From NCBI GenBank assembly GCA_049303675.1, contig JBAQNJ010000001.1, positions 278,994 through 342,993 on the forward strand: a DNA stretch of 64,000 bases, written 5' to 3'. How positions within the stretch are numbered: the stretch's first letter is position 1; every line of letters begins with the position of its first letter. The notes under the pieces are model-generated. The model saw nothing but the letters and a program-made list of their open reading frames with translations. It was not told the origin of the DNA and did no database searches. Below, piece after piece: positions 4,782 to 47,690 of the stretch. The position numbers and the translations under genes were made by a program. This DNA comes from Microgenomates group bacterium (GTDB lineage Bacteria; Patescibacteriota; Microgenomatia; UBA12405).

Positions 4782-5541
4782 CTGGATGGAAAAAAGCCCT
4801 CTTTAGATCCACTTGTCCATTCTTAATTTTATTTTTCATGTACAATTTTTGCGGCCAGTAGACCAGCCAATTTATAAAGTTTAAAAATATTGTCTCATTT
4901 CTTTGTTTTGACTTTTTACTTTTTACTTTTGACTTTCGACTATATGGCGTCGCCACATATCTCCCAATCCACTTATTTTCCCTTATAAATTTCTTATATA
5001 TGCCACTTCTGTCTAGTACCGGTACCATCAATATTGAATCCATGGCATTTTTCAAGTTTTGCCTTTTTTGAGGTATTTCCAGCACGTCCTCTTCTAGCCA
5101 CAAATTAAAACAGAATTCATCACCCTTTTCGTTTTTGCCATACTTTCTATGGGGGATACCTCTTAATACCACAAATATTCTCAGCCACAATCTTGTCACC
5201 CATAGGCGGTTTTGTCTGGTGACAATCATCAAATCTATGTCGTCATCGACTTTTGGGTAGCCCGCCGCTACCGAGCCAGTTATGCCAACCAACAAAATAT
5301 TAGGGAAAAACTTTTCAATTAGTTTTACCACCTCCTTTGTTTTTACTATTTTATTATTCTTATTTTTAATTTTTAATTCGTAATTATTAATTCGTAATTT
5401 TTCCAATGCTCTATTTATGAGTTTTTCATTAAATACTGCCCCAGAAATCAAACGTTCCTTTATCACCCGTTTACTATATTCCACCCCATATTTTCTACCG
5501 TATTCTCTAGTTTTATTAATTGCCTCGTTTAATTGGTCCAC
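4765..5541 (-). CDS. Nucleotidyltransferase-domain protein (Pol-beta superfamily)
   Basis: LLVGITGSVAAGYPKVDDDIDLMIV = GS...DxD nucleotidyltransferase signature; contains Lys-rich segment encoded by heptamer repeat. Confidence 0.55.
   Translation of the reverse strand: MDQLNEAINKTREYGRKYGVEYSKRVIKERLISGAVFNEKLINRALEKLRINNYELKIKNKNNKIVKTKEVVKLIEKFFPNILLVGITGSVAAGYPKVDDDIDLMIVTRQNRLWVTRLWLRIFVVLRGIPHRKYGKNEKGDEFCFNLWLEEDVLEIPQKRQNLKNAMDSILMVPVLDRSGIYKKFIRENKWIGRYVATPYSRKSKVKSKKSKQRNETIFLNFINWLVYWPQKLYMKNKIKNGQVDLKRAFFHPDDKIG
4906..4940. repeat. Heptanucleotide tract (gacttttt/acttttt)
   Basis: ttttgactttttactttttacttttgactttcgac; on minus strand encodes KSKVKSKKSK in nucleotidyltransferase gene. 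Confidence 0.75.
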
Positions 5542-7080
5542 TCTCTATTCTACCTTGGTATAATAATAGTCGTATCTATGAATAAAAATGGCCGTTTATA
5601 CCGAATTCTTGAGATGGTTCCAGGAGTGTTTGCTTGGACAGCCATCACTTTCCCCATTTGGGGAGCCTTTATTTTTCCCAAGGTGGTTGCCTATTTTGTG
5701 ATTGCTTTTCTAATTTACTGGCTTTTTCAATCATTCAAATCAGCCATTTTTGCCATTATTGGTTATTTCAAAATTCATCGAGCTCAAAACACCTTGTGGT
5801 TTGAGCTATACAAACAACACCAAGATACCTCATGGTTGGAATATTCCAAAATTCACCATGTAATTATCATTTCCTCATACAAAGAACCTGTTGAAGTTAT
5901 CGACATGGCTGTAGGCAGTCTAGCTGCTCAAATTGATATCGACCTGCATCAGCTCCATGTGATTGTCGCCCAAGAGCAACGTGCCGGTATAGAAAATAAT
6001 CAGAGAACAATCAAATATTTTCAATCAAAATACAAAAACATTTTTGGCAACTTAATTTTTACCGAACATCCAGCAAATATCCATGGTGAAACTATTGGCA
6101 AACACAGCAACGAGGCCTACGCCGCCAAATATTTCAAAAAACACTATATCGATAATCACCAGTTTGATATTAATTTTCTAACACTCAGTTCTTGTGACGT
6201 TGATACTATTTTTAATCCCAAATATTTCTCTGCTCTTACTTATAACTTCGCCTCTTCCCCAAATCGTTATTTTAGATTCTGGCAGTCTCCCATCTTTTGG
6301 CATCACAATATTAATAGTGTCCCAGGACCAATTAGAATCATCGGAACTCTAGGCAATGTCATTCACATCGCCAATATTCAGGAGCCAGATGGTTTGTTTT
6401 TTAATTACTCCTGCTATTCATCGTCATATAAACTAATCGATTCAGCCGGTTACTGGGATGTCGACATGATACCTGAAGACTGGCATATTTTTCTCCAAAC
6501 ATTTTTTAGTAGCGGTGGTCGTAGCCAGGTTGAACCTATATTTCTCCCTACCATTGTCGACGCCCCCGATGGCAACAACTATCTTGACGCTCTCAAAAAT
6601 AGATACTCTCAATCCGTTCGTCACGCCTGGGGGGCTATTGATATACCCTATGCTATCCGCCAATCTGTGCTTCACCCCGAAATACCCTTTATCACCCGAG
6701 CCCTCCGTGTTTACAAGTTAGTCGAATCACATTTCATTTGGTCTAGTAATTGGTTCATCCTTACCCTAGGCACTTCACTTCCTGTTGTTCTCAACCCCAA
6801 ATTCTTCCAAACCACTATTGGTTTCAACCTACCTCGTATTTCCAATATCATTCTTACGCTCTGTCTTTTCCCGCTCATCTCCCTAATAATTCTCGACTGG
6901 AAACTCCGGCCAAAATATCAAAAAACTGGATTCAAAAATATCATGAACAATATCCTTCAATGGCCTTTTATGCCTTTGGCTACCTTGACCATGTCTGTCC
7001 TCCCCGGTCTCCATTCTCATACTCGACTCATGTTGGGCCAAAGGCTGGAATACAAGACTACCCAAAAAAAGGCAAAGTAA
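5533..7080 (+). CDS. Membrane glycosyltransferase, family 2-like
   Basis: 515 aa; N- and C-terminal TM clusters; central domain with SCDVDTIF (DxD-like) and FWQSPIFWHH (QxxRW-like) motifs. Confidence 0.5.
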   Translation: MVHSLFYLGIIIVVSMNKNGRLYRILEMVPGVFAWTAITFPIWGAFIFPKVVAYFVIAFLIYWLFQSFKSAIFAIIGYFKIHRAQNTLWFELYKQHQDTSWLEYSKIHHVIIISSYKEPVEVIDMAVGSLAAQIDIDLHQLHVIVAQEQRAGIENNQRTIKYFQSKYKNIFGNLIFTEHPANIHGETIGKHSNEAYAAKYFKKHYIDNHQFDINFLTLSSCDVDTIFNPKYFSALTYNFASSPNRYFRFWQSPIFWHHNINSVPGPIRIIGTLGNVIHIANIQEPDGLFFNYSCYSSSYKLIDSAGYWDVDMIPEDWHIFLQTFFSSGGRSQVEPIFLPTIVDAPDGNNYLDALKNRYSQSVRHAWGAIDIPYAIRQSVLHPEIPFITRALRVYKLVESHFIWSSNWFILTLGTSLPVVLNPKFFQTTIGFNLPRISNIILTLCLFPLISLIILDWKLRPKYQKTGFKNIMNNILQWPFMPLATLTMSVLPGLHSHTRLMLGQRLEYKTTQKKAK

Positions 7081-7093
7081 GCTAAAATATTTT

Positions 7094-8545
7094 ATGGTCA
7101 AGGTTTTTATACACAAGAACCGTTTTTTTATTATTCTATTTTTAATTTTTGTTTTATTACGTTTACCTTCTCTTTTTGAACCATATTGGTATGGCGATGA
7201 GGGGATTTATCTGGTACTAGGTCAAGCCATCCGTAGAGGTCTTGTTCTCTATACCCAAATTCACGATAACAAACCACCCACTCTCTATTACCTCGCTGCC
7301 CTTGCCCAGACAGTTTTTGGTTTTCGGCTTCTGTTGGCCCTATTCATGGCCGGAGCTTACTATTATTTTTATTTATTATCCAATAAATTATTGTCCTCAA
7401 AACTTTCTCAAGTTTCTTGTTTCTTGTTTCTTGTTTTAACTTCCATTCCCCTAATCGAAGGTAATATCGCCAATGCCGAGGTCTTTATGCTCCTCCCCAC
7501 TATTGCCGGTATATATTATTTTCTCTATTCCCATTCTAGTTTCAAATTTCTAGTTTCAGGCCTTTTACTTGGTTTCGCTTTCACCATCAAAATTCCAGTA
7601 GTAGTCGAATTTGGTTTTCTTGGTCTCTGGCTATTGATAAACAATAAAAATAATATCTACTCTACTCTAAAAAATTTATTCTTCTTCTCTCTTGGTTTCA
7701 TTTTTCCTTTTACCCTATACTTTATTTATTTTTATTTTAAGGGGGCTTTATCAGATTTTGTCTTCGCCTCAATTCTCCAAAATTTTGGCTATCTATCATC
7801 ATGGCAAACAGGCACTCACTCTGGCACGGCCACCAATAGTGGGTTGATAATCAGAGCCGTTACTCTGCTTGTTTTTTGGGGCACCACTTATTATCTGTAT
7901 TTAAAAAAATATCTCACCAAAAACACTTACCTTATTTTATTTTGGTTTTCTGCCACCATTTTTGGTGCACTTTTATCTGCCCGCCCATATCCTCACTATT
8001 TGATTCAGGTCACTCCGCCTCTCTGTCTGTTGATTCTCGCTATTTTTGATTCCAAGTTACATCCAAAAATTCGCTACTTTATTTTATTTTTGTGTTTTGT
8101 GTTTTGTGTTTTGATTTTTAGATTTAAATTCTATGCCTATCCCGTCTTTTCCTATTATAAAAACTATTATTCCCATCTCACCAGTCTAAGCTCACGCAGT
8201 TATCGAAATTATTTTGGATCCCGAGTTGACGATACCTACCAAATTTCCCAATACCTAAAAGACAATACCAGTCCTAACGACAAAATATTTGTTTGGGCCG
8301 ACGAACCCTATATTTATGCTCTCTCTTCTCGACTGCCAGTCGGCCGATTTACGGTTGCCTATCATATAGTCGACTTCAACCAGTACCTGCCCACATACAA
8401 CCAATTAATTGTTGATTTTCCCAAAGTAATTGTTACTTTTCCAATGAATAATCGACCCTATCCCGAACTCGAGAGATTACTAAAACTTTACTATCATCCC
8501 GATGCCAGCATCGGTGACTCAACCATATATTTTCGTACAGATTAA
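7094..8545 (+). CDS. GT-C fold glycosyltransferase, PMT_2/ArnT-like (dolichyl/undecaprenyl-phosphate-sugar dependent)
   Basis: 483 aa polytopic; first loop PYWYGDEGIY...HDNKPPTLYYL matches DE...KPPL signature of PMT_2/ArnT family; contains internal 7-mer (tttcttg x3) and 8-mer (tgtgtttt x3) nucleotide repeats. Confidence 0.55.
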   Translation: MVKVFIHKNRFFIILFLIFVLLRLPSLFEPYWYGDEGIYLVLGQAIRRGLVLYTQIHDNKPPTLYYLAALAQTVFGFRLLLALFMAGAYYYFYLLSNKLLSSKLSQVSCFLFLVLTSIPLIEGNIANAEVFMLLPTIAGIYYFLYSHSSFKFLVSGLLLGFAFTIKIPVVVEFGFLGLWLLINNKNNIYSTLKNLFFFSLGFIFPFTLYFIYFYFKGALSDFVFASILQNFGYLSSWQTGTHSGTATNSGLIIRAVTLLVFWGTTYYLYLKKYLTKNTYLILFWFSATIFGALLSARPYPHYLIQVTPPLCLLILAIFDSKLHPKIRYFILFLCFVFCVLIFRFKFYAYPVFSYYKNYYSHLTSLSSRSYRNYFGSRVDDTYQISQYLKDNTSPNDKIFVWADEPYIYALSSRLPVGRFTVAYHIVDFNQYLPTYNQLIVDFPKVIVTFPMNNRPYPELERLLKLYYHPDASIGDSTIYFRTD

Positions 8546-22635: not shown

Positions 22636-23685
22636 GTGCAGATTTCTACCTTAATCCTCGAAAATTTTCGCTCTTACACACGACGTGAACTAAAACTTGA
22701 TTCAAAAACTAATTTAATTTTGGGACACAATGGTGCCGGCAAGACTAATATTTTAGAAGCTATTTATTTCCTGTCCTGTGGTAAAAGTTTTCGTAGTAGT
22801 TCCCTATCGCAATTAATCAATTGGAACAGTACTTACACTAGTGTTCAGGGTCAACTTGATGACCATACTCTCGAGGCTCAGCTAATCAAGAATGCTGCCA
22901 AAATGTCCCTTAGTCGTCAGTTCAAACTCGACCAAGTGATCAAAACTCGTCCCAAATATCTCGGCACTATGAAATGTGTTGTTTTTGAGCCAGAGGATAT
23001 TCGACTAGTTAATGGTTCACCCACCCGTCGTCGCGATTATCTCGATAGTGTTTTTGCTACCACCGAGTGGCGTTATGCTGGTGCCCTGTCCCAATTTCAC
23101 CGAGCTCTTAAGCATCGCAATGAATTGCTAGATCAAATCAGGGACGGCAAAAACCAAAAATCAGAGTTATTTTACTGGGATCAGTCTCTTATTAAAAACT
23201 CAGAAATAATTCACGATTTCCGGCAAAAATTTATACAATCAGTCAATCAATTTTTTCAGAACCATTCTTTCACCGAAATAAAAACTTTGTTTTTAACCTA
23301 CCACCCCTCAGTTCTGACTCAAGAAAAATTAGAACTCAATTATTTCCACGACCTCAATTCCGGATTTACCCAAGCAGGAATTCATCGTGACGATTTTACC
23401 TTCAATAATTCAATTTTCTCCACTGAAGACAAGAATTTAGCTTATTGGGGGAGTCGTGGTCAACAGAGACTAGCAGTCCTAGCTCTCAGACTTGCTCAAA
23501 TAAATTATCTAGAGGAAACCTATTCTCAAAAGCCAATTTTACTTCTCGACGATATTTTTTCCGAGCTCGATCCCGAGCATCGCCAGTTAGTTGTCAACAT
23601 CTGTCAAACGTACCAAACCATTTTTACCTCCGCCGAGGACAATATTTCTCACTTTTTACCTCAAGCTAACCAAATTAGTCTCTAA
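22636..23685 (+). CDS. recF: DNA replication and repair protein RecF
   Basis: NFRSYTRREL...ILGHNGAGKTNILEAIYFLSCGKSFR Walker A; C-terminal LLLDDIFSELD signature. Confidence 0.85.
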   Translation: MQISTLILENFRSYTRRELKLDSKTNLILGHNGAGKTNILEAIYFLSCGKSFRSSSLSQLINWNSTYTSVQGQLDDHTLEAQLIKNAAKMSLSRQFKLDQVIKTRPKYLGTMKCVVFEPEDIRLVNGSPTRRRDYLDSVFATTEWRYAGALSQFHRALKHRNELLDQIRDGKNQKSELFYWDQSLIKNSEIIHDFRQKFIQSVNQFFQNHSFTEIKTLFLTYHPSVLTQEKLELNYFHDLNSGFTQAGIHRDDFTFNNSIFSTEDKNLAYWGSRGQQRLAVLALRLAQINYLEETYSQKPILLLDDIFSELDPEHRQLVVNICQTYQTIFTSAEDNISHFLPQANQISL

Positions 23686-24119: not shown

Positions 24120-25617
24120 TGTACTAAGAGTTTGATCGTGGCTCAGGGTAAACGCTGGCGATGTGCCTAAGACATGCAAGTCGAACGGGATTCATTATCT
24201 TCACAAAGTTTCTAATTTTAGTGATTTTGTGAAGATAGTGAGTTTAGTGGCGAACGGGTGAGTAATGAGTACGAACGTACTCTCAAGCGGAACATAGCCC
24301 ACCGAAAGGTGGAGTAATTTTCCATAGTCTCGCAAGAGTAAAGATGCAAATCACTTGAGAAGCGGCGTACTTGCCACCAGCTAGTTGGTAGGGTAACGGC
24401 CTACCAAGGCTATAACGGCTAACGGCTCTTAGCGGAGAGTCCGTCACAATGGGACTGAGACACGGCCCATACTTCTACGGAAGGCAGCAGTTAGGAATCT
24501 TGCGCAATGGACGAAAGTCTGACGCAGCGACATCGCGTGAAGGATGAAGGCCCTCGGGTCGTAAACTTCTTTTATTGTGCCATGAAGGCATTTTGAATCA
24601 ACAGCTACTAACTACGTGCCAGCAGTCGCGGTAATACGTAGGCTGTAAGCGTTACCCGGTTTTATTGGGCGTAAAGCGTCTGTAGGTGGTTTTGTAAGTC
24701 TTGTTTCAAAGACCCCAGCTTAACTGGGGGCAGGGGCAGGATACTGCAAGACTAGAGTGATATCGGGGTTACTGGAATTTTTAGTGTAGGGGTAAAATCC
24801 GTGGATACTAAAAAGAACACCAAGCGCGAAGGCGGGTAACCAGGTATTTACTGACACTCAGAGACGAAAGCTAGGGTAGCCAATCAGATTAGAGACCTGA
24901 GTAGTCCTAGCTGTAAACTATGTATGTTAATTCTCTGTAATTTATTATGGGGGATGTAAGCTAACGCGTTAAACATACCGCCTGGGGAGTATAGCCGCAA
25001 GGCCGAAACTCAAACGAATTGGCGGGGAGGCGCACAACCAGTGGAGCATGTGGTTCAATTCGATACGAAGCGATGAACCTTACCTGGGTTTGAAATGTAT
25101 CTGCAAACCCCCAGAAACGGGGGAATCCTTAGAGGGTGATACACAGCTGTTGCATGGCTGTCGTCAGCTCGTGACGTGAGTTGTTCTCTTAAGTGAGGTA
25201 ACGAGCGCAACCCCCATCCGGTGTTATTGTGTCACCGGAGACTGCCTAGCATTATTTTGTTAGGAGGAAGGAGGGGACGACGTCAAGTCAGCATGATGCT
25301 TATGTCCAGGGCTACACACATCCTACAATGAGGAAGACAATGGGTCGCGAAACCGCGAGGTGGAGCCAATCCCACAAACTTCCTCTCAGTTGGGATTGCA
25401 GGCTGAAACTCGCCTGCATGAACCCGGAATTGGTAGTAATCGCGCATCAGCAGCGCGCGGTGAATACGTTCTCGCCTCTTGCACACACTGCCCGTCAAAT
25501 CAGCAAAGTTGAGGGCACCTGAAGCTTGGCCTTTGGCCGAATCAAGGTGAATTCAGCGATGAGGGTTAAGTCGTAACAAGGTATCTGTACTGGAAGGTGC
25601 AGATGGATCACCTCCTT
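24120..25617 (+). rRNA. rrs: 16S ribosomal RNA
   Basis: AGAGTTTGATCGTGGCTCAG at 24127; GTGCCAGCAGTCGCGGTAATAC; 3' end GGATCACCTCCTT at 25605-25617. Confidence 0.95.
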
Positions 25618-25721
25618 TGAGGATTTATCCGTATTCCAATTTATTGGATATCGGATCATGAATCGAACTCTTTCTGGTACTAACATTTTTGGCTTTAAAT
25701 AAAATAGTGGTTGAATAAAAT

Positions 25722-26588: not shown

Positions 26589-27311
26589 ATGCCTCCATTT
26601 GTTACCAAACTAAAAATCGAGCCGGACAAACTTCCCCAACACATTGCCATTATTATGGACGGCAACCGTCGTTGGGCCAAACAAAACAATTTTGACCCCA
26701 GCAAAGGCCACGAGGCAGGCGCTGCCAATCTCCAAAAAATTGTCGAATATTGTCGCGATATTGGCGTCAAACATTTGACAGTCTATGCCCTATCTACCGA
26801 AAACTGGCGACTCCGTTCCCCCCTCGAAGTCAGGGGATTATTTAATTTATTGATCAAGGTAGTCAAGACCAAGGCCGAGGAATATCAGCGTTCCGGCATC
26901 AAGTTTTTTGTCCTCGGCAATTTTCAAGCTTTCCCTCACAAGGTCAAAGAAGCAATCAAAAAAATATTATCTCTGGCCATAGTTAAGGAAAAAATACAGT
27001 TCAATATCGCTCTCAATTACGGCGGTCGTGATGAAATCGTTCATGCTCTGAAGAAAATTATTCAGGACAAAGTTCCTGAAAACAAAATAGACGAAAATTT
27101 AATTAGCAGCTATCTCTATACCAAAAATCAGCCCGATCCTGATCTCATTATTCGTCCGGGCGGTGAATTTAGACTTTCCAATTTTCTTATTTGGCAAATG
27201 TCCTATGCCGAACTATTTTTCACCAATATTCTCTGGCCAGATTTTACCCCCCGTGAACTCGAAAAAGCCATCTACTGGTACCAGCAGCGCGACCGCCGCA
27301 TGGGAAAATAA
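26589..27311 (+). CDS. uppS: Undecaprenyl pyrophosphate synthase
   Basis: HIAIIMDGNRRWAK...ALSTENW...FLIWQ motifs. Confidence 0.9.
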   Translation: MPPFVTKLKIEPDKLPQHIAIIMDGNRRWAKQNNFDPSKGHEAGAANLQKIVEYCRDIGVKHLTVYALSTENWRLRSPLEVRGLFNLLIKVVKTKAEEYQRSGIKFFVLGNFQAFPHKVKEAIKKILSLAIVKEKIQFNIALNYGGRDEIVHALKKIIQDKVPENKIDENLISSYLYTKNQPDPDLIIRPGGEFRLSNFLIWQMSYAELFFTNILWPDFTPRELEKAIYWYQQRDRRMGK

Positions 27312-27313
27312 AT

Positions 27314-28249
27314 CTATATATTTATTTTCCACTTTGGCGGGTAAAAATACTTAATCAAATTGTTTGCTGGTTGATATCTCGTTTTTATTCGTACTCGATT
27401 ACTTACCAACTTTGGAAATTTTACTCGACAGTATTTATCAGTTTCACAAAACCATCCCTGACAATCAATCGCACTCATAGGCCTGCCTCCCAGATTTTTG
27501 AAATCAATTCCTAGTCTCCGAAATTCTTTTTCCTGATTTTCCACCATATATCGTATGATATCCTCATCACTCTTTCCAGATGTATTTACAAAACATTTGG
27601 CAATTCCTCTGAGTGCCCCAGGCCCAGCTACAGTAAAGTCATTTTCATCAAAATCAAATATTTCGGAATAATTAAAATCAATCGCCAACTGATACGCCAT
27701 AAAATTTCCCAGTAGAGGAAAACCTTTCAAACCTTCATACAATTTTTTCAAAGAATTTGCGCTCAAAATTAACTGTGTATTTTTCTTATTTCCAAAAATA
27801 AAATTCAACAAAGCTAGGTGATTTTCGTGTTTTTTATCAAAACCAAATATTTTGTTCGCACACAAAATAAATGCATTGCCGTATATTGGTTTATTTTCTT
27901 TTATCTTTTCTAATATTCTTGCGTATCTATCAGCACTAAAATTTTTTAGGCTAATTTCTCCCAGATCTAACTCTAACTGCTGCCATGTTTCAATTTTATT
28001 GAGTAGTCTAAATAACAAAATTCTAAAAAGAGTATCCTCTGCCGTAAATTTATCAGTGTAGATTACGTTTTTAATCAAAAATTGGGAAACTCTGTCACTT
28101 GCTCGGTAGACATTACAAAATTTATAACTTTGGTAAATTGGATCATCTGTCAAATGAACAGTTTTATTATTTAATTTACGAAAAAATATTTCTTGTCGCT
28201 CAGCTGCTGTTTTCCAATAGGTGTCATAAACTTTTTGCCGAACTCTCAT
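27314..28249 (-). CDS. Hypothetical protein
   Basis: 311 aa, no motif I can name with confidence; last gene of minus-strand pilin-like operon. Confidence 0.4.
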   Translation of the reverse strand: MRVRQKVYDTYWKTAAERQEIFFRKLNNKTVHLTDDPIYQSYKFCNVYRASDRVSQFLIKNVIYTDKFTAEDTLFRILLFRLLNKIETWQQLELDLGEISLKNFSADRYARILEKIKENKPIYGNAFILCANKIFGFDKKHENHLALLNFIFGNKKNTQLILSANSLKKLYEGLKGFPLLGNFMAYQLAIDFNYSEIFDFDENDFTVAGPGALRGIAKCFVNTSGKSDEDIIRYMVENQEKEFRRLGIDFKNLGGRPMSAIDCQGWFCETDKYCRVKFPKLVSNRVRIKTRYQPANNLIKYFYPPKWKINI

Positions 28250-28254
28250 TTTAT

Positions 28255-28545
28255 CTAGTGACTCAAAAAATCAAACCCCTGTGCCGCCAATCTCATTCTC
28301 ATTACCCCCGCAATCAGCTCTTTATCCCATTCTTCCTGTGCCGATTTCACTTCTCTGGCCTTATCCTCAGCCATTCTCGCCTCTGGGCTCATGGCTTCTC
28401 TTCTAGCAACGGATCTCTCTAACAATTTTGTAAATTCTTCTTTTGCTGCCAACGCCCTAGGGGTAAAACTGCTTCCAGCCCCAGAGAGAGTCTCTATCCA
28501 TCTCTGGTCATTCTTACCATCATCCATTTTGCTTCTCATCCCCAA
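28255..28545 (-). CDS. Hypothetical charged small protein
   Basis: 96 aa, locally higher GC. Confidence 0.3.
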   Translation of the reverse strand: MGMRSKMDDGKNDQRWIETLSGAGSSFTPRALAAKEEFTKLLERSVARREAMSPEARMAEDKAREVKSAQEEWDKELIAGVMRMRLAAQGFDFLSH

Positions 28546-28817
28546 TTATATCCTATTTTTTTACCAACCCGATCTATTGCCGAGTATACAACCACCACTT
28601 GTTTCGCCAACGCCTCATCAATTTCTGCCGAAGATGCTCCCATTGGCAGTAGTAGCCCCCGAGGGAATATGGCTCTGCCTGTACCTACTGGTATTGGCAC
28701 TCGGCACTCTATACAAGCTGTATGAGGAAAGCTAGGTATTCCCCCACATGGCTCTTTTTTTTTCCAATCTTCTTGCGGACAATCTCTTGGTACTTTTCCC
28801 ATACAGAGGTATATCAC
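28536..28817 (-). CDS. Hypothetical Cys-rich small protein
   Basis: 93 aa with CxxxC...C...CxxC pattern. Confidence 0.3.
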   Translation of the reverse strand: MIYLCMGKVPRDCPQEDWKKKEPCGGIPSFPHTACIECRVPIPVGTGRAIFPRGLLLPMGASSAEIDEALAKQVVVVYSAIDRVGKKIGYNWG

Positions 28818-28824
28818 ACTTTCA

Positions 28825-29106
28825 CTACAAAAATTTTACCCCAAACACAACTTGTACAATTTGCGCCACAAAATAGGCCACAAATATAATGATGAATCCA
28901 ATTATCGCCGCCGAAATCTTGCCATAGCCATCTTTTGATTTGGCTTGGTCCCCGCCAGCAGTCATCAGGGTAATTCCTCCCACAATCAACATCACTAGCA
29001 TCGCCAATCCGGCAATGACGTACACATATGGTAAAACTGCACTAATCACCGACCCAATAGTCGGAAACTTAGTACTAATCGCATCAGTTGGAAGTGTTAC
29101 TGCCAT
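28825..29106 (-). CDS. TrbC/VirB2-like two-TM pilin-family protein
   Basis: 93 aa; TM1-MTAGGDQAKSKDG loop-TM2 architecture. Confidence 0.5.
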   Translation of the reverse strand: MAVTLPTDAISTKFPTIGSVISAVLPYVYVIAGLAMLVMLIVGGITLMTAGGDQAKSKDGYGKISAAIIGFIIIFVAYFVAQIVQVVFGVKFL

Positions 29107-29107
29107 A

Positions 29108-29521
29108 TTAATTTATTCCGGGAATTTTTAATATTCCTACGGCCAATAGTCGTAGTAAAAAAAGTGCAAAAATAGACACTAGTAGTCCCGTAATCGCCGA
29201 TGTCACCGTTTCTTGCGCCCCTGCCACTTTCTTGGGATCTCCTCCCGAGGTGGTTAGTAGGAAAAATCCGTAACACATTAGTAGAAATGCAATTCCCCCC
29301 GCCACTCCAAACATCGAAGGTAGCAGCCACGCTACAAATTGATCTATTTTTACCGGTACACAGCCAAAGGCAGTATTTACCTTGGGATCATTACCAGTTT
29401 GGCAAAATGCTTTATTGGTCGCTGCCATAATTGGGCTGACTGTATTTATCATCAACACCGTCACAATTACAGCAACCTTCGCCAATTTCCCAAAATTCAT
29501 ACACAAGTATATCATGCACAC
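29108..29521 (-). CDS. TrbC/VirB2-like two-TM pilin-family protein (paralog)
   Basis: 137 aa; signal/TM then LLTTSGGDPKKVAGAQE loop then TM. Confidence 0.5.
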   Translation of the reverse strand: MCMIYLCMNFGKLAKVAVIVTVLMINTVSPIMAATNKAFCQTGNDPKVNTAFGCVPVKIDQFVAWLLPSMFGVAGGIAFLLMCYGFFLLTTSGGDPKKVAGAQETVTSAITGLLVSIFALFLLRLLAVGILKIPGIN

Positions 29522-29525
29522 CTAA

Positions 29526-31226
29526 ATGATAAACTTACTAGTGATCCAAAAAATGCTTTTCTTTTTTACTTTTTACTTTTTACTTTTTACTTTCGTCCCC
29601 CATGTTTTTGCCGATATAAATGATGATATAGCGCAGCTTAGTAAACAAATTTCCGCCCTAGATGCTGCCATCGCCCCCCTCAAAAAAGAATCTACCGGAC
29701 TCTCCGCCAAAATTTCCTCAGCCAAAGCCACCATTCTCAAAACCGAAAAACAAATTACCGACCTTGGTGTCCGCCTGATTGACAAGGAGGCGGATCTCGA
29801 AGTCCAAAAAACTCTTCTCTCTTCTCGAGTTCGTCGTTATTACATCAACACCAAAAAATACAATCCACTCCTCATCTTTTTTGCCTCTACCGAGAGTACT
29901 TCTCTCCTCCGCCAATATTCTTGGTATCAATCAATTATTAGTACTGATCGCAATACCATTGTTGGCTATGTCAACGATATTAATTCTCTTAATCAAAATA
30001 AAATAAAATTAGAAGCTGAAAAAGTCAAATTGGCCGTCATCAAAAAAAATCTTGAATCCCGTTTTGGCTTTTTAGCCGGTGAAATCCAAAAAGCCGAGGC
30101 CTACAAAAATGAACTTAGCAAAAAACAGCAAGCCTTAATCGCCGAGAAAACCGCTATGTTCAACACCAGCGTTGGTGACGTCTCCTCATCCGACGATCCC
30201 GCCTCTAGATCCGATTATAATCCGGGGTTTTCCCCTGCTTTTGCTGTCTTTTCTTTTGGCGCCCCCCATCGTAAAGGTATGTCCCAATACGGTGCTTTTG
30301 GTCGATCCAAGGCAGGGCAATCCGCCGAAACCATTCTCAAGGCCTACTATGGCGATATTCGTCTCGAGAAAATGGACTCACCAGCTTCAATCCGCACCAC
30401 AGTTGGTATCCTTCCCTTCGAAGATAATTACTTAGTCGGTATCGCCGAAATGCCCGCTAGTTGGGGAGATTTAGGTGGCTATGAAGCACTCAAAGCTCAG
30501 GCCATTGCCGCTCGCACTTATGCCATCAATTCCACCAACAATTTATCCGGCACTATTTGTGTCACCGAGGCTTGTCAGGTCTACAGTCGTTCCCGACTCA
30601 ATTCACCGGGGCGCTGGCGTCAGGCAGTTATTGATACTCGGGGTATAGTTATCAAAAGCAACAAAACTGGCCGAGTTTTCTCCACCATGTATGCTTCGAC
30701 TTCTGGTGGGGCCATCACTTCATATTCCAGTTCCGATCACAGCACTCCTATGGTTTGGGATACCACTTGTGGCAGCCAGTCCTGCTGGCCATCTGGAGCC
30801 TACGAAAAATCAGCAGGTTCTTCGTGGTATTACAAGGGTTGGTACAAGACTCGTAGCAATGTCTCCGCCGGTCGATCTCATCCATGGTTAAATCAAGAGG
30901 AATTTTCCGACATTATCAATGCTATTATTTATTTTTCCAAAAACAAAGACTCTTCTCATTTATCTCAAATCCAAAATTGTCTCGGTTCCTGTGATTCAAA
31001 TGCGTGGTCTAGGGACGAACTTCGTAGGCAAGTAGGCAACGCCGTAAGTTCAGTCAACTCTGTCTCTGTTGACTATTCTACCGCTGGCTATACCCAAACC
31101 GTTCGAGTCAGTACCGACAAAGGTGATTTTAGCTTTAATGGCACAGACTTTAAAGAAATATTTACCCTCCGTGCCCCAGGTGCCCTGACTGCTAAATCCA
31201 GTCTCTTCAATATTGAGAAAAAATAA
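29526..31226 (+). CDS. SpoIID/LytB-domain cell-wall protein with N-terminal coiled coil
   Basis: APHRKGMSQYGAFGRSKAGQSAETILKAYYGD = SpoIID/LytB core; N-terminal signal/TM encoded by (acttttt)4 heptamer tract. Confidence 0.7.
   Translation: MINLLVIQKMLFFFTFYFLLFTFVPHVFADINDDIAQLSKQISALDAAIAPLKKESTGLSAKISSAKATILKTEKQITDLGVRLIDKEADLEVQKTLLSSRVRRYYINTKKYNPLLIFFASTESTSLLRQYSWYQSIISTDRNTIVGYVNDINSLNQNKIKLEAEKVKLAVIKKNLESRFGFLAGEIQKAEAYKNELSKKQQALIAEKTAMFNTSVGDVSSSDDPASRSDYNPGFSPAFAVFSFGAPHRKGMSQYGAFGRSKAGQSAETILKAYYGDIRLEKMDSPASIRTTVGILPFEDNYLVGIAEMPASWGDLGGYEALKAQAIAARTYAINSTNNLSGTICVTEACQVYSRSRLNSPGRWRQAVIDTRGIVIKSNKTGRVFSTMYASTSGGAITSYSSSDHSTPMVWDTTCGSQSCWPSGAYEKSAGSSWYYKGWYKTRSNVSAGRSHPWLNQEEFSDIINAIIYFSKNKDSSHLSQIQNCLGSCDSNAWSRDELRRQVGNAVSSVNSVSVDYSTAGYTQTVRVSTDKGDFSFNGTDFKEIFTLRAPGALTAKSSLFNIEKK
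29561..29597. repeat. Heptanucleotide tract (ACTTTTT)x4 + actttcgtc
   Basis: cttttttactttttactttttactttttactttcgtc inside 5' end of SpoIID gene. Confidence 0.8.
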
Positions 31227-31311: not shown

Positions 31312-31632
31312 ATGAGCATTCATCTAATCGCCATTGCCCTCCATGGCCCAAATCATCCCCCAGTTATTGAAATTAATGATGATCAACAACCAAACTTTTC
31401 ACATAACAGTGGTCTTCCTTATCGTCGGACAGCTGTGCCTATTTTTTCCGGTGATGACATTGTTGCTGCCGATAAGGGCGATATCGGGACGGTTGATCTA
31501 AGGTTCAAAAACAAAGATGGAAATACTGTTTTCAAACCAATACTAGACTTAAAACCAGGTGAGCTCTGTTCCGCTACCACCACTAATCTTCCCAGTGGCC
31601 ACAGATATACATTTATTTTGCAACGTCTCTAA
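31312..31632 (+). CDS. Hypothetical protein
   Basis: 106 aa ORF. Confidence 0.3.
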   Translation: MSIHLIAIALHGPNHPPVIEINDDQQPNFSHNSGLPYRRTAVPIFSGDDIVAADKGDIGTVDLRFKNKDGNTVFKPILDLKPGELCSATTTNLPSGHRYTFILQRL

Positions 31633-35080: not shown

Positions 35081-35575
35081 TTGATTATGCCAGTTGATAA
35101 AACCCATCGAGAAATATTAGACCATGCCATCAACATTGCCTATCAAAACGCCACCAAATTCACTGCTCGCCAGCCAAATAGTGACTTCGCTACCACCTCT
35201 GCAGAAATAGATAGTTCTCGGGGTAAAGCCCATTTGTCAATTGGTGTCACTCGAACACAGCAAGGGCTAGATACCGAAGTCAGTCTTCAGCCAGCAGGTA
35301 GTGGTAAAGGCAATGACTGGAGCTATCGACTTGTATCCCAAACCGTCTGGCCAGATATCTACGGTCAACTAGTTGGAACTATGGACCATTACCCAGAAAC
35401 ACAAGGCATGACTGCCTCAGAAGCATTGGAAGTTTTACAGAAGACCTCACCCATAGAAATATCTTTTCCAAGGCGAGAACAACATTCATCTGAGGAAATC
35501 AGCTTTTTTCTACTGAGGGGAGATGGCAGAAGTGTGATTGACGATCTAGCTCGAATGGTCCGACCCCGTCGATAA
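35081..35575 (+). CDS. Hypothetical protein
   Basis: 164 aa ORF. Confidence 0.35.
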   Translation: MIMPVDKTHREILDHAINIAYQNATKFTARQPNSDFATTSAEIDSSRGKAHLSIGVTRTQQGLDTEVSLQPAGSGKGNDWSYRLVSQTVWPDIYGQLVGTMDHYPETQGMTASEALEVLQKTSPIEISFPRREQHSSEEISFFLLRGDGRSVIDDLARMVRPRR

Positions 35576-38211: not shown

Positions 38212-38455
38212 TGCTATAATTTTCCATATGTCCAAAAAATCAACAGCATCTCTCGAAATTGAATTACCTCAAGACACTATTACTGCGATCAAAGCCTATG
38301 CCTCCGAGAAACACCTATCTTTCAACAAAGCTACCCTCAGGTTTATCAGTATTGGTCAACAATTCGAACAATTGGCCAGTGAATCAGGAGTGACTTTTCA
38401 CACCAAGCTGCCTGCCAGTCGTCATCCTCATCCATTTGGTCGCAAATTTCCCTAA
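38183..38455 (+). CDS. Hypothetical small protein
   Basis: 90 aa ORF overlapping murA end. Confidence 0.25.
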   Translation: MLASSTSRLSAIIFHMSKKSTASLEIELPQDTITAIKAYASEKHLSFNKATLRFISIGQQFEQLASESGVTFHTKLPASRHPHPFGRKFP

Positions 38456-38859
38456 CCAATTTTTGTTGTTAGTCCATATATCGGCAATATTATTGCCACC
38501 ACCAACAGTCCCACTACTAGTCCGATCAACAGCATTGCCAACCATTGTAATTCACTAATCATCAAATCCTTCGAGCTAATCATTGAACCTTCCTTGTATT
38601 TTAGTAGTCTCTCATCAAACTTAATATCCATAAAATTTGGTGAGAATATGTATCCCGCAAAAATAATCAATCCTACTACCACATAATTAATGTACTTCTC
38701 TACCAAAATAGTTATTGCCAGTTTATCCACCCCCATTTCAGTATACAGTCCCGTTAGCTTTGGCATTACCACATACGACATTAATCCCAGTACTATCGCC
38801 ATTACTATTGATACTATGGCCACCTGCAACTTTTGCCCTTTCAAAATATCCCTTGCCAC
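38452..38859 (-). CDS. PilC/GspF-like (T2SS-F domain) C-terminal fragment
   Basis: 135 aa; C-terminus LLIGLVVGLLVVAIILPIYGL resembles PilC/GspF terminal helix; only one partial domain. Confidence 0.4.
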   Translation of the reverse strand: MARDILKGQKLQVAIVSIVMAIVLGLMSYVVMPKLTGLYTEMGVDKLAITILVEKYINYVVVGLIIFAGYIFSPNFMDIKFDERLLKYKEGSMISSKDLMISELQWLAMLLIGLVVGLLVVAIILPIYGLTTKIG

Positions 38860-39246: not shown

Positions 39247-39678
39247 AGGAGGAGATGCTCGGTATTGAGCCGAGGTCCAAAGTGGACTATAAAAAACGTC
39301 TACAAGCTTAATTTACTTTATCCTACACTTTCAACAACTAAAGTAAACGAAAAGTGTTGAAATGTCGATTATTGAGGGCATTACCCCTCTCTTAAATCCA
39401 CGATCTAATCGAGAAGATCGGGACAGCATTCTAGTTTAATTTACACTAGCTAGTCTTCTCTAGAAAAGGGGACTAACTAATGGATGATTCTGTTTAGGCA
39501 AGAGCCCAAACAGGAGCCTTAGAAGCTAGAGCGCCTTTTACAGCGTTTGCAACTTTGGTTAAATCAACACCAAAAGTATTTTTGGCATGTTTGTTTTTGA
39601 CCCTGTTTAACGACTCAATGGATCAAAGTCGGCTTGCGGTTTTTTAAGGTACTCACCTTGTCGATGCAATACATCTCC
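39247..39678 (-). ncRNA. ssrA: tmRNA (ssrA) candidate
   Basis: Minus strand: 5' GGAGATG-TATTGCATCGACAAGG (cf. GGAUUCGACGGG), internal tag ORF GCA AAC GCT ... TAA = ANAVKGALASKAPVWALA*, 3' GGAC-CTCGG-CTCAATA-CCGAG-CATCTCC (T-arm + acceptor strand complementary to 5' GGAGATG) then terminator; smpB 2.7 kb away. Confidence 0.55.
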
Positions 39679-46455: not shown

Positions 46456-46589
46456 AAAATCTTGCATTCTATTTTTAGTTTCGCTATTATTCTTAGAGTG
46501 TTTAGAAGACCCTTAGGGGTTGACAACCGAGTCCGCCAAATGGTCCACGGTGCCCACTAAAACACGCCTTATCAATTAAAAGGAAAAAT

Positions 46590-47690
46590 ATGAATTATCC
46601 TCAATTTTCGTCCGAATCTGTCTGTGAAGGTCACCCCGACAAAGTCTGTGACCAAATTAGTGATGCTATCTTAGACGCTGCCTATACCCTCGACCCTATG
46701 GCTCGGGTCGCTATCGAGACTTTGGCTACGGTCAACAAATTAGTTTTAGCCGGAGAAGTTACTATTAATGGTACTCTCGATTATGCCGCTATTGCCCGCC
46801 AAAAGATCGCCGAGCTCGATTTTCTCGATTCAGTTTTAGATTTTACCGACAAATGCGACATCGAAATTGCTGTCCACACACAGTCACCCGATATTGCTCA
46901 GGGCGTCAATGCTGGTGGAGCCGGTGATCAGGGGATGATGTTTGGTTATGCTTGTCGCGAGACACCCGAACTAATGCCCCTTCCCATTTCCATGGCTCAC
47001 AAATTATGCCGTCAAATGGACGAATTACAGCGCATTCATCGTTGGATGCGCCCCGATGGCAAGTCTCAGGTTACCGTTCGTTATGATGGTCAGACTCCGG
47101 TAGCCATCGAGCGAGTTGTCTTGGCCAAGCCCATGAATTACGACCTCGCCCCTGCTGATTATTCTCACTTTTTCTATCAAAATGTCATTGTTCCAGTCTT
47201 AGCTGAATACAAGTTTGAAATCAGTGAAGACAAAATGATTCTCAATGGTACCGGTAAATGGACCATTGGTGGCCCCTCCGCCGATACTGGCGTTACTGGC
47301 CGCAAAATTGTCGTTGATACTTACGGTGGTATGGGTCGTATTGGTGGTGGTTGCTTTTCCGGCAAGGATACTACCAAGGTCGATCGCAGTGCCGCCTACG
47401 CCGCTCGCTATATTGCCAAAAATATTGTGGCTGCAGGTCTCGCCGATCGCTGCGAGGTTCAATTAGCCTATGCTATTGGTCAAGTCCTGCCTGTTGGTCA
47501 ATCTATTGAGACTTTTGGCACTGCCAAGTCAGAATTAAAGGTAATCGAAGATTTTGCATGGAAATTACTCGAATTATCGGTCGCTGGTATCAACAGTGGT
47601 CTCAATCTCCGCGTGCCAATGTATGCCAAAACCGCCCGCTATGGCCACTTTGGCCATCCCGAGTATCCATGGGAGAAGATAAAAGGCTAA
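46590..47690 (+). CDS. metK: S-adenosylmethionine synthetase
   Basis: FSSESVCEGHPDKVCDQISDAILDA; GGGCFSGKDTTKVDRSAAYAARYIAKN. Confidence 0.9.
   Translation: MNYPQFSSESVCEGHPDKVCDQISDAILDAAYTLDPMARVAIETLATVNKLVLAGEVTINGTLDYAAIARQKIAELDFLDSVLDFTDKCDIEIAVHTQSPDIAQGVNAGGAGDQGMMFGYACRETPELMPLPISMAHKLCRQMDELQRIHRWMRPDGKSQVTVRYDGQTPVAIERVVLAKPMNYDLAPADYSHFFYQNVIVPVLAEYKFEISEDKMILNGTGKWTIGGPSADTGVTGRKIVVDTYGGMGRIGGGCFSGKDTTKVDRSAAYAARYIAKNIVAAGLADRCEVQLAYAIGQVLPVGQSIETFGTAKSELKVIEDFAWKLLELSVAGINSGLNLRVPMYAKTARYGHFGHPEYPWEKIKG

Follow-up and report, generated by a model that had tools for sequence, protein, structure and literature searches.

Patescibacteria are obligate epibionts. Their type IV secretion systems (T4SS), with arrays of VirB2-like pilins, are to our knowledge unique among T4SS in being essential for the bearer. 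Two adjacent minus-strand genes at 28825–29500 of a 64,000 nt stretch from a Microgenomates group bacterium (assembly GCA_049303675.1, contig JBAQNJ010000001.1, positions 278,994 to 342,993; the whole stretch is called the window, and positions are counted from its first letter) are described here. They are probably a conserved two-gene VirB2-like pilin array of a Patescibacteria-type chromosomal T4SS, and dependent on a T4SS encoded at a distance. An earlier note on this DNA, made from the letters alone, had placed them at the head of a five-gene minus-strand operon that diverges from a SpoIID/LytB wall protein and has no VirB4 nearby.

In a census of Patescibacteria genomes (Quinonero-Coronel et al. 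2025, PMC12102498), VirB4 was found in 2,417 of 3,035 genomes (80%). VirB2-like pilins, detected by PF18895, PF04956 and CONJScan profiles, occurred in 1,948 VirB4-containing assemblies, and in only 1,135 of these were they near virB4 (PMC12102498). The same study recorded 441 VirB2 arrays of 2–11 genes, abundant in Microgenomatia and with an identity of about 25% within arrays, and showed that the virB4 of Microgenomatia is usually near dnaA/dnaN (PMC12102498). Southlakia epibionticum cannot grow epibiotically without its six-gene pilin array, a result that prompted the idea of a pilus-like conduit in a monoderm T4SS (PMC12857230). The lack of a nearby VirB4 is the common case for Patescibacteria pilins and not an anomaly.

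The pair shares with the described arrays (the six-gene array of S. epibionticum ML1, the 'Sec-secreted array' of TM7x and the 441 arrays of PMC12102498) the family PF18895, tandem divergent paralogs (23% identity here, about 25% there), a chromosomal position lacking a relaxase context, a Microgenomatia-type genome and the frequent separation from virB4. Arrays are recognised as 2–11 tandem genes of low mutual identity; the present pair falls within this range, and its relatives carry two, three or eight genes. It differs in consisting of two genes of two fixed types, one with a leader and a cysteine pair and one leaderless, and in being divergent from a SpoIID gene rather than lying inside a T4SS locus. 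It is also known from sequence only.

The first gene of the pair (29108–29500, minus strand) encodes the type-A protein of 130 amino acids (aa), and the second (28825–29106, minus strand), which starts 1 nt past the type-A stop codon, encodes the type-B protein of 93 aa. Type B scores 37.5 bits against the Pfam family PF18895 (T4SS_pilin), above the gathering threshold of 26.6, and nearly all of its 64 homologs belong to the same family, the named ones coming from Candidatus Shapirobacteria. Type-A orthologs are also mostly precomputed PF18895 matches. The best-named relatives of the pilins are again from Candidatus Shapirobacteria, for example HYV64_00360 with 81% identity. The loops between the two hydrophobic segments read TTSGGDPKK in type A and TAGGDQAK in type B, a common pattern of T-x-G-G-D-(P/Q)-x-K. 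Both small proteins are almost certainly hairpin proteins of the PF18895 family, and the pilin-like layout of transmembrane segment (TM), loop and TM that the earlier note had recognised was borne out by the family scores, by hydropathy and by structure prediction, the loop motif being read directly from the translations. Its label of TrbC/VirB2-like holds in the sense of the VirB2-like T4SS pilin family PF18895 of Patescibacteria, but not in the sense of the canonical family PF04956.

Structure prediction with AlphaFold2 (AF2) from family alignments gave a helical hairpin for each protein. The type-B model (predicted local distance difference test, pLDDT, 85.5) consists of helices 17–48 and 54–88. 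The type-A model (pLDDT 80) has a leader helix at residues 3–19, three short strands within 32–49, and a hairpin of helices 52–84 and 89–120. Hydropathy peaks agree with these two-helix hairpins in both proteins, each a hydrophobic helix-loop-helix of about 70 residues. The two types are related to each other (phmmer E ~1e-5; hhalign of the family profiles 96.7% probability, E 3.7e-10, over 68 columns), with a core identity of 23%, and they are distinct orthologous families. In an alignment of 107 sequences, type A shows a predicted Sec signal peptide with cleavage after A26, the alanine at −1 being nearly invariant, followed by a short ectodomain with invariant C33 and C47 around the motif NTA(L/F)GC(I/V)P. 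Next come TM1, the loop TSGGDPKK and TM2, and IPGxN is conserved at the C-terminus. Type B, aligned over 58 sequences, lacks the leader; it begins with an N-terminal tail of about 16 residues, followed by TM1, the loop TAGGDQAKSKDGYGK and TM2, and the loop of the family contains GYGK.

The type-A N-terminus is the variable part of the pair. Column identity is 0.36–0.37 in the leader and the segment that follows it, versus 0.76–0.88 in the motif and hairpin. In several relatives, the segment after the leader has grown to 150–350 residues, either Cys-rich or Pro/Thr-rich, behind a clear signal peptide, so that the ectodomain ranges from 16 aa here up to about 350 aa. Long type-A orthologs of this kind, all on the minus strand, are found at L055:1726–3129, L054:467–1780, L057:3240–4334, L033:2398–3444, L076:3503–4717 and L089:33–1463 (locus numbers refer to the comparison set described below). 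They match PF18895 at their C-termini only, with 20–42 bits, except for the L076 protein, which had no Pfam match at E ≤ 0.01; no known Pfam domain was matched by the N-terminal extensions. Because of the signal peptide, the variability of the segment and its expansion in relatives, the type-A N-terminus is predicted to lie outside the cell, where it is presumably an evolving, interacting surface.

When metagenome contigs were searched for relatives of SpoIID, 80 related loci were obtained, with SpoIID identities of 42–88%; some of these loci represent one organism sampled repeatedly. Divergent pilin ORFs were present upstream of SpoIID in 50 of the 51 loci that had at least 900 nt of sequence there, and 44 of the 50 carried exactly two (three loci had three, one had eight and two had one). 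The eight tandem pilin ORFs occur in a distant relative (L087:3034–5948, minus strand) with a SpoIID of 43% identity. A 'Woesebacteria'-labelled ortholog, looked up independently, displayed the same layout, with both pilin genes flagged as PF18895. The pair, conserved across this Shapirobacteria-like clade, is part of a longer collinear block, in the order recF, uppS (plus), type-B pilin (minus), type-A pilin (minus), divergent SpoIID (plus), (p159), a bPH_2 protein, a DUF5657 protein, a 600-aa protein and smpB.

Aligning the short spacer between the pilin and SpoIID genes of the relatives revealed a conserved element on the pilin strand. In the window, this extended −10 promoter-like element, TGATATACT, lies at 29506–29514 (minus strand), 5 nt 5′ of the ATG at 29500. 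Of 58 type-A ORFs of related loci, 39 have the sequence TGnTATACT 5–8 nt (mostly 6) ahead of a start codon in frame, giving products of the expected length. The start codon of type A is most likely ATG 29500, because of the position of this conserved motif and the corresponding NCBI call; the gene noted earlier as encoding 137 aa is therefore present, but that length, which runs from GTG 29521, most likely shortens to 130 aa. The more general pattern of TGnTATA[AC]T, 4–8 nt and a start codon occurs at nine sites in the window, each heading an ORF of at least 66 aa, compared to an average of 0.04 sites heading an ORF of 60 aa or more in a shuffled sequence. The start codons of the nine sites are at 22636, 29500, 32235, 35087, 36006, 38228, 40059, 40358 and 58780, with the element 5–7 nt upstream, and most agree with where genes are annotated to begin, among them recF, the bPH_2 gene and those at 35087 and 36006. 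Consensus scans for sigma-70 promoters and terminators returned site counts not above shuffle expectation, and the informative promoter signal came only from the comparative alignment. The mRNA of the pilin operon would be leaderless or near-leaderless, and the organism appears to make wide use of extended −10 promoters giving leaderless mRNAs, the pilin operon being one case.

No VirB4, VirD4, VirB6, PilB or PilT was detected in the window by Pfam scans of most ORFs of at least 110 aa. No large P-loop ATPase is encoded there: among ORFs of at least 100 aa, Walker A motifs are confined to recF, a fusion of Sua5 and TsaE, and a protein of 193 aa, in agreement with the earlier statement that the window lacks an ATPase, VirB4 or VirB6. 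Pfam likewise detected no T4SS or type IV pilus component in about 8 kb past either end of the window, which brings the covered length to about 80 kb. No VirB4 was found in any of the related loci retrieved, and the best 120 matches of a search with the pilin profile contained orthologs only, with no paralog from the same genome. Two large ORFs without Pfam assignment, at 5533–7080 and 7094–8545, were considered as TrsD/VirB4 since their spacing resembles the 25-gene index gap between VirB4 and the listed VirB2 gene in relatives; they were rejected, as neither has a Walker A motif. By inspection, both resemble membrane proteins with several passes; one matched a membrane mannosyltransferase family (PMT-type) weakly, and the other gave no match that could be interpreted. 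The minus-strand ORF at 38452–38859, previously taken for a PilC-like fragment, had no T2SSF/PilC match at E ≤ 0.1; it encodes a 135-aa three-helix membrane protein with only a weak DUF3796 match, and NCBI calls it a complete gene.

Of the two options left by the earlier note, a different small-pilin system or a T4SS with its remaining parts encoded elsewhere, the second is favoured by the published frequencies and by two relatives. The Shapirobacteria assemblies GCA_000992285.1 and GCA_000989305.1, which carry the type-A orthologs KKQ49890.1 and KKQ30389.1 (P0059), have adjacent TrsD and VirB4 genes elsewhere. Table S3 of the census lists for these assemblies a TrsD-VirB4 pair, two type IV coupling proteins, a VirB3-like gene and a single VirB2-like gene that was picked up with the virB2 profile of mating-pair formation class T (MPF-T), the last likewise flagged as not near virB4 (PMC12102498). 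The SpoIID-linked pair escaped this published screen, and profile and coverage cut-offs can miss a subfamily. As the VirB2-like gene listed is a different one, such genes number at least one more in the clade than the SpoIID-linked pair.

In the explanation that is probably correct, the extended −10 element would drive the pilin operon, giving a leaderless mRNA. Type A would be inserted via Sec and then cleaved, while type B would insert independently of a signal, with its short N-terminal tail outside. Both would then sit N-out, loop-in and C-out, forming a membrane pool of pilins with the basic loop in the cytoplasm. A VirB4/TrsD-based T4SS encoded elsewhere on the chromosome of about 1 Mb would extract them into a surface filament or conduit serving contact with the host cell or uptake from it, as proposed for the essential array of S. 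epibionticum. The type-A N-terminus would be the exposed, fast-evolving part, onto which relatives have grafted Cys-rich or Pro/Thr-rich domains of 150–350 aa. Several observations weigh against this explanation. We know of no pilus that has ever been seen on a Patescibacterium T4SS. The type-A protein itself scores 26.0 bits against PF18895, marginally below the gathering threshold of 26.6; neither pilin matches PF04956 (canonical TrbC/VirB2) at E ≤ 0.1; and the family profile retrieved no solved T4SS pilin in a search of PDB sequences, only chance-level matches. The DNA flanking the pilins contains no gene for a T4SS ATPase or channel over about 38–45 kb on either side, and a VirB4 in this genome itself is inferred from relatives and literature frequencies. 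The orthologs KKQ49890.1 and KKQ30389.1 are not listed as VirB2 in Table S3, where a different VirB2-like gene appears instead (PMC12102498). Finally, a 350-aa domain on every subunit would be hard to reconcile with a tightly packed filament.

Comparison with better-known pilins provides both likenesses and differences. Like canonical VirB2/TrbC/TraA (PF04956 and relatives), the proteins are small, have a short basic loop that connects two hydrophobic helices and, in type A, a predicted leader; the N-out, C-out topology predicted for them is that of the mature pilin. They differ in the lack of a PF04956 match and of adjacent virB3/virB4, in the monoderm host, in the leaderless type B, and in the Cys-pair motif and C-terminal IPGxN, which are specific to the family described here. 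The Mbov_0395 family (NF045849) of integrative and conjugative elements (ICEs) in Mycoplasma consists of leaderless two-helix proteins of about 80 aa, and represents a T4SS of a wall-less or monoderm cell. It is the best NCBIfam match of type B (residues 15–84), but the score of 28.1 bits is below the curated cut-off of 40, so that type B is not a member, and there is no ICE context here. The archaeal Ced/Ted pilins are hairpin pilins of the VirB2-like class, and one of them (the Aeropyrum pernix pilus, PDB 8dfu) was the top Foldseek match of the type-A model and gave the highest TM-score for type B (0.60/0.66); the E-values of 0.89 and 7.5 are not significant, and any helical hairpin scores alike.

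The three genes that follow the pilins are of a different nature. The Cys-rich ORF (28536–28802, minus strand) encodes 88 aa as called by NCBI, or 93 aa from GTG 28817, with the cysteine spacing C-x10-C-x10-C-x2-C. It is an orphan, its sole match among 5.8 billion clusters being itself, and it has no Pfam, NCBIfam or PADLOC match. The charged protein (28255–28539, minus strand) has 94 aa, or 96 aa from TTG 28545, and its start overlaps the Cys-rich stop by 4 nt. An exhaustive HMMER search of 1.84 billion representatives found only two distant relatives, P0003 (115 aa, 46% identity, E 9.5e-9) and P0006 (123 aa), with the common core 'ALSPExR..EDKAR...EWD'. Neither protein has a homolog in any of the 80 related loci. 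The last gene (27314–28249, minus strand), noted earlier as a 311-aa hypothetical, matches the HMUDK_hel domain (PF18723) over its full length (326 bits, E 2.6e-97, profile positions 2–279 of 281). It contains no Walker A motif and no kinase domain was matched by Pfam. It is a stand-alone protein with the helical domain of 5-hydroxymethyldeoxyuridine (5-hmdU) DNA kinases and, because the P-loop is absent, not such a kinase itself. The gene has a GC content of 0.32 (0.27 at third codon positions), compared to 0.43–0.47 in its neighbours and a local value of ~0.44. Homologs with 53–68% identity occur in Collier-, Woese-, Ames- and Berkelbacteria, Saccharimonadales, Clostridia, Erysipelotrichaceae and Pedobacter, and no conserved partner genes were seen across the 10 genomes compared. 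Judging by this distribution, a single gene under strong constraint seems to provide the function and to move horizontally among cellular (non-phage) genomes.

On the far side of these genes lies uppS (undecaprenyl-diphosphate synthase; 26589–27311, plus strand; PF01255, 263 bits), the convergent boundary gene of the region. In 26 of 42 loci the uppS stop is within 25 nt (1–25 nt) of the type-B pilin stop. The other 16 have gaps of 83–3,034 nt with unrelated inserts, which comprise PMT-like glycosyltransferases, a Nudix gene together with a different HMUDK_hel-like gene, an extra long pilin and assorted small ORFs (filled or noted junctions: L016, L018, L022, L023, L034, L060, L076 and L086). 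No similarity was found between these small ORFs and the Cys-rich or charged ORF. In L034, the HMUDK_hel-like gene, on the opposite strand, is accompanied by a Nudix-like gene matching the PADLOC candidate system PDC-S07; PADLOC gave no match to the cassette inserted in the window. The junction between uppS and the pilins (27311 to 28825) is a variable insertion hotspot, and the Cys-rich, charged and HMUDK_hel genes are a strain-specific, partly foreign insertion, outside pilin function. The functional unit is the pilin pair and not five genes, because the other three sit in this hotspot.

The SpoIID/LytB-domain protein (29526–31226, plus strand) has 566 aa, or 561 aa from the NCBI start at 29541, with an N-terminal signal or anchor and a coiled-coil region. 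Matches above cut-off to PF08486 (53.8 bits, cut-off 23) and TIGR02669 (101.6 bits, cut-off 83.3), together with weak SMC and PcsB coiled-coil matches at residues ~30–210, corroborate the earlier description of a divergent coiled-coil SpoIID/LytB neighbour. It may be a wall-remodelling partner of the pilins, as proposed earlier: the adjacency is near-invariant, but the whole order from recF to smpB is equally conserved in the clade. For this reason, synteny alone is no proof that SpoIID and the pilins are coupled.

A single functional pilus operon of all five genes on the minus strand, in which the Cys-rich, charged and 311-aa products would be accessory proteins or help in assembly, is very improbable. 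The genes are certainly co-directional and tightly packed, with intergenic gaps of 1, 22, −4 and 5 nt in order, and no leaderless-type promoter was found inside the cassette. The consensus scan found no terminator-like site between the five genes and one after the last, a hairpin and T-run at 27272–27287 (minus strand), 27 nt past the HMUDK_hel stop and within the 3′ end of uppS; this may be the end of the minus-strand transcript, the total of such sites in the region being not above shuffle expectation. The packing, the lack of internal terminator-like sites and the hairpin after the last gene make co-transcription of the five genes by read-through plausible in this strain. However, the Cys-rich and charged proteins, one an orphan and the other nearly so, are missing from all 80 loci, in which uppS mostly ends right next to the type-B pilin. 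HMUDK_hel is represented there by a single weak relative, on the opposite strand of L034; it is a domain of the cytoplasmic DNA-modification type, with deviant GC and unrelated contexts in other phyla. Comparative synteny largely refutes the five-gene unit proposed earlier, as its last three members are not conserved beside the pilins. It is extremely improbable that the type-A and type-B proteins are Flp/Tad or type IV pilins, or class-II holins in a SpoIID lysis cassette, even though they are hydrophobic, lie beside a peptidoglycan-cleaving enzyme and belong to a group that does use type IV pili. No Flp or type IV pilin family was matched at E ≤ 0.1, which also answers the Flp search suggested earlier; there is no G/(F,M)xxxE prepilin cleavage motif, the models of both proteins have two helices where such pilins have one hydrophobic helix at the N-terminus, and the neighbourhood lacks a PilB/PilT/TadA ATPase. 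As for holins, their C-termini are charged while those of the present proteins are hydrophobic, the SpoIID protein has its own signal peptide, and the locus is chromosomal, conserved and flanked by housekeeping genes, not prophage-like.

A role of the type-A/type-B pair in a T4SS-independent envelope module, together with SpoIID, the bPH_2 protein, DUF5657 and the 600-aa single-pass protein and with no T4SS pilus, is unlikely but carries real arguments. In its specific form, itself doubtful, the PF18895 hairpin would be a two-helix anchor, perhaps an A/B heterodimer, displaying a variable disulfide-rich ectodomain, while SpoIID opens the wall locally. The adjacency to SpoIID is retained even where SpoIID identity has fallen to 42–45%, ectodomains of 150–350 aa suit a surface-display anchor better than a packed filament, no T4SS gene occurs in about 80 kb, and the published census lists a different VirB2-like gene (T_virB2 profile) in the relatives. 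Against this, collinearity of the whole recF-to-smpB region in the clade makes adjacency weak evidence of coupling, PF18895 ties the proteins to arrays located within T4SS loci, which in Saccharibacteria are essential together with those loci, and the signal peptide and PcsB-like coiled coil of SpoIID fit a role in division or wall metabolism unrelated to pilins. A related and quite unlikely view is that the pair is a clade-wide sub-system overlooked by the census: a two-component membrane scaffold driven by a leaderless mRNA and independent of, or loosely dependent on, a T4SS. Its parts would be assigned, no less tentatively, as a hypervariable disulfide-rich host-recognition domain in type A, an obligate partner in type B and wall passage by SpoIID.

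The window as a whole looks like part of a Patescibacteria chromosome. It corresponds to the reverse complement of positions ~118,470–182,469 of contig JBAQFH010000001.1 (998,417 bp) in assembly GCA_049287145.1, and the runs SRR28062879 and SRR28062869 contain this sequence too. The five ORFs of the minus strand and the divergent one on the plus strand were all confirmed at the positions first reported for them, and correspond to NCBI genes WAV41_01150, 01155, 01160 onward. A lone 16S rRNA gene (24120–25618, plus strand) has no adjacent 23S gene, a tmRNA gene (39247–39678, minus strand) lies near smpB, and a SAM-I/IV riboswitch (46493–46599, plus strand) is immediately 5′ of metK. The families DUF5657 and DUF5667, both present, are largely specific to the candidate phyla radiation (CPR). 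The remaining identifiable genes are housekeeping ones, including penicillin-binding proteins, enzymes of glycolysis and the pentose-phosphate pathway, TsaD/TsaE, MurA, MetK and tryptophanyl-tRNA synthetase (TrpRS). After SpoIID, a 106-aa ORF (31312–31632, plus strand) has no counterpart among the 80 related loci, and the spacing from SpoIID to the bPH_2 gene differs by kilobases between relatives, a second variable spot of the otherwise collinear block.

The locus is a largely ordinary case of the known Patescibacteria VirB2-like array unlinked to virB4, and alone leaves existing knowledge of these systems unchanged. What it adds is a pair reduced to one gene of each pilin type, strictly conserved and away from the motor, with a variable N-terminus and a defined promoter and start codon. 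With the extended −10 elements, start codons and the heads of operons can easily be fixed in a Shapirobacteria-like genome. The comparative picture aids the choice of constructs for structural work, and flags a subfamily that profile-based censuses may miss.

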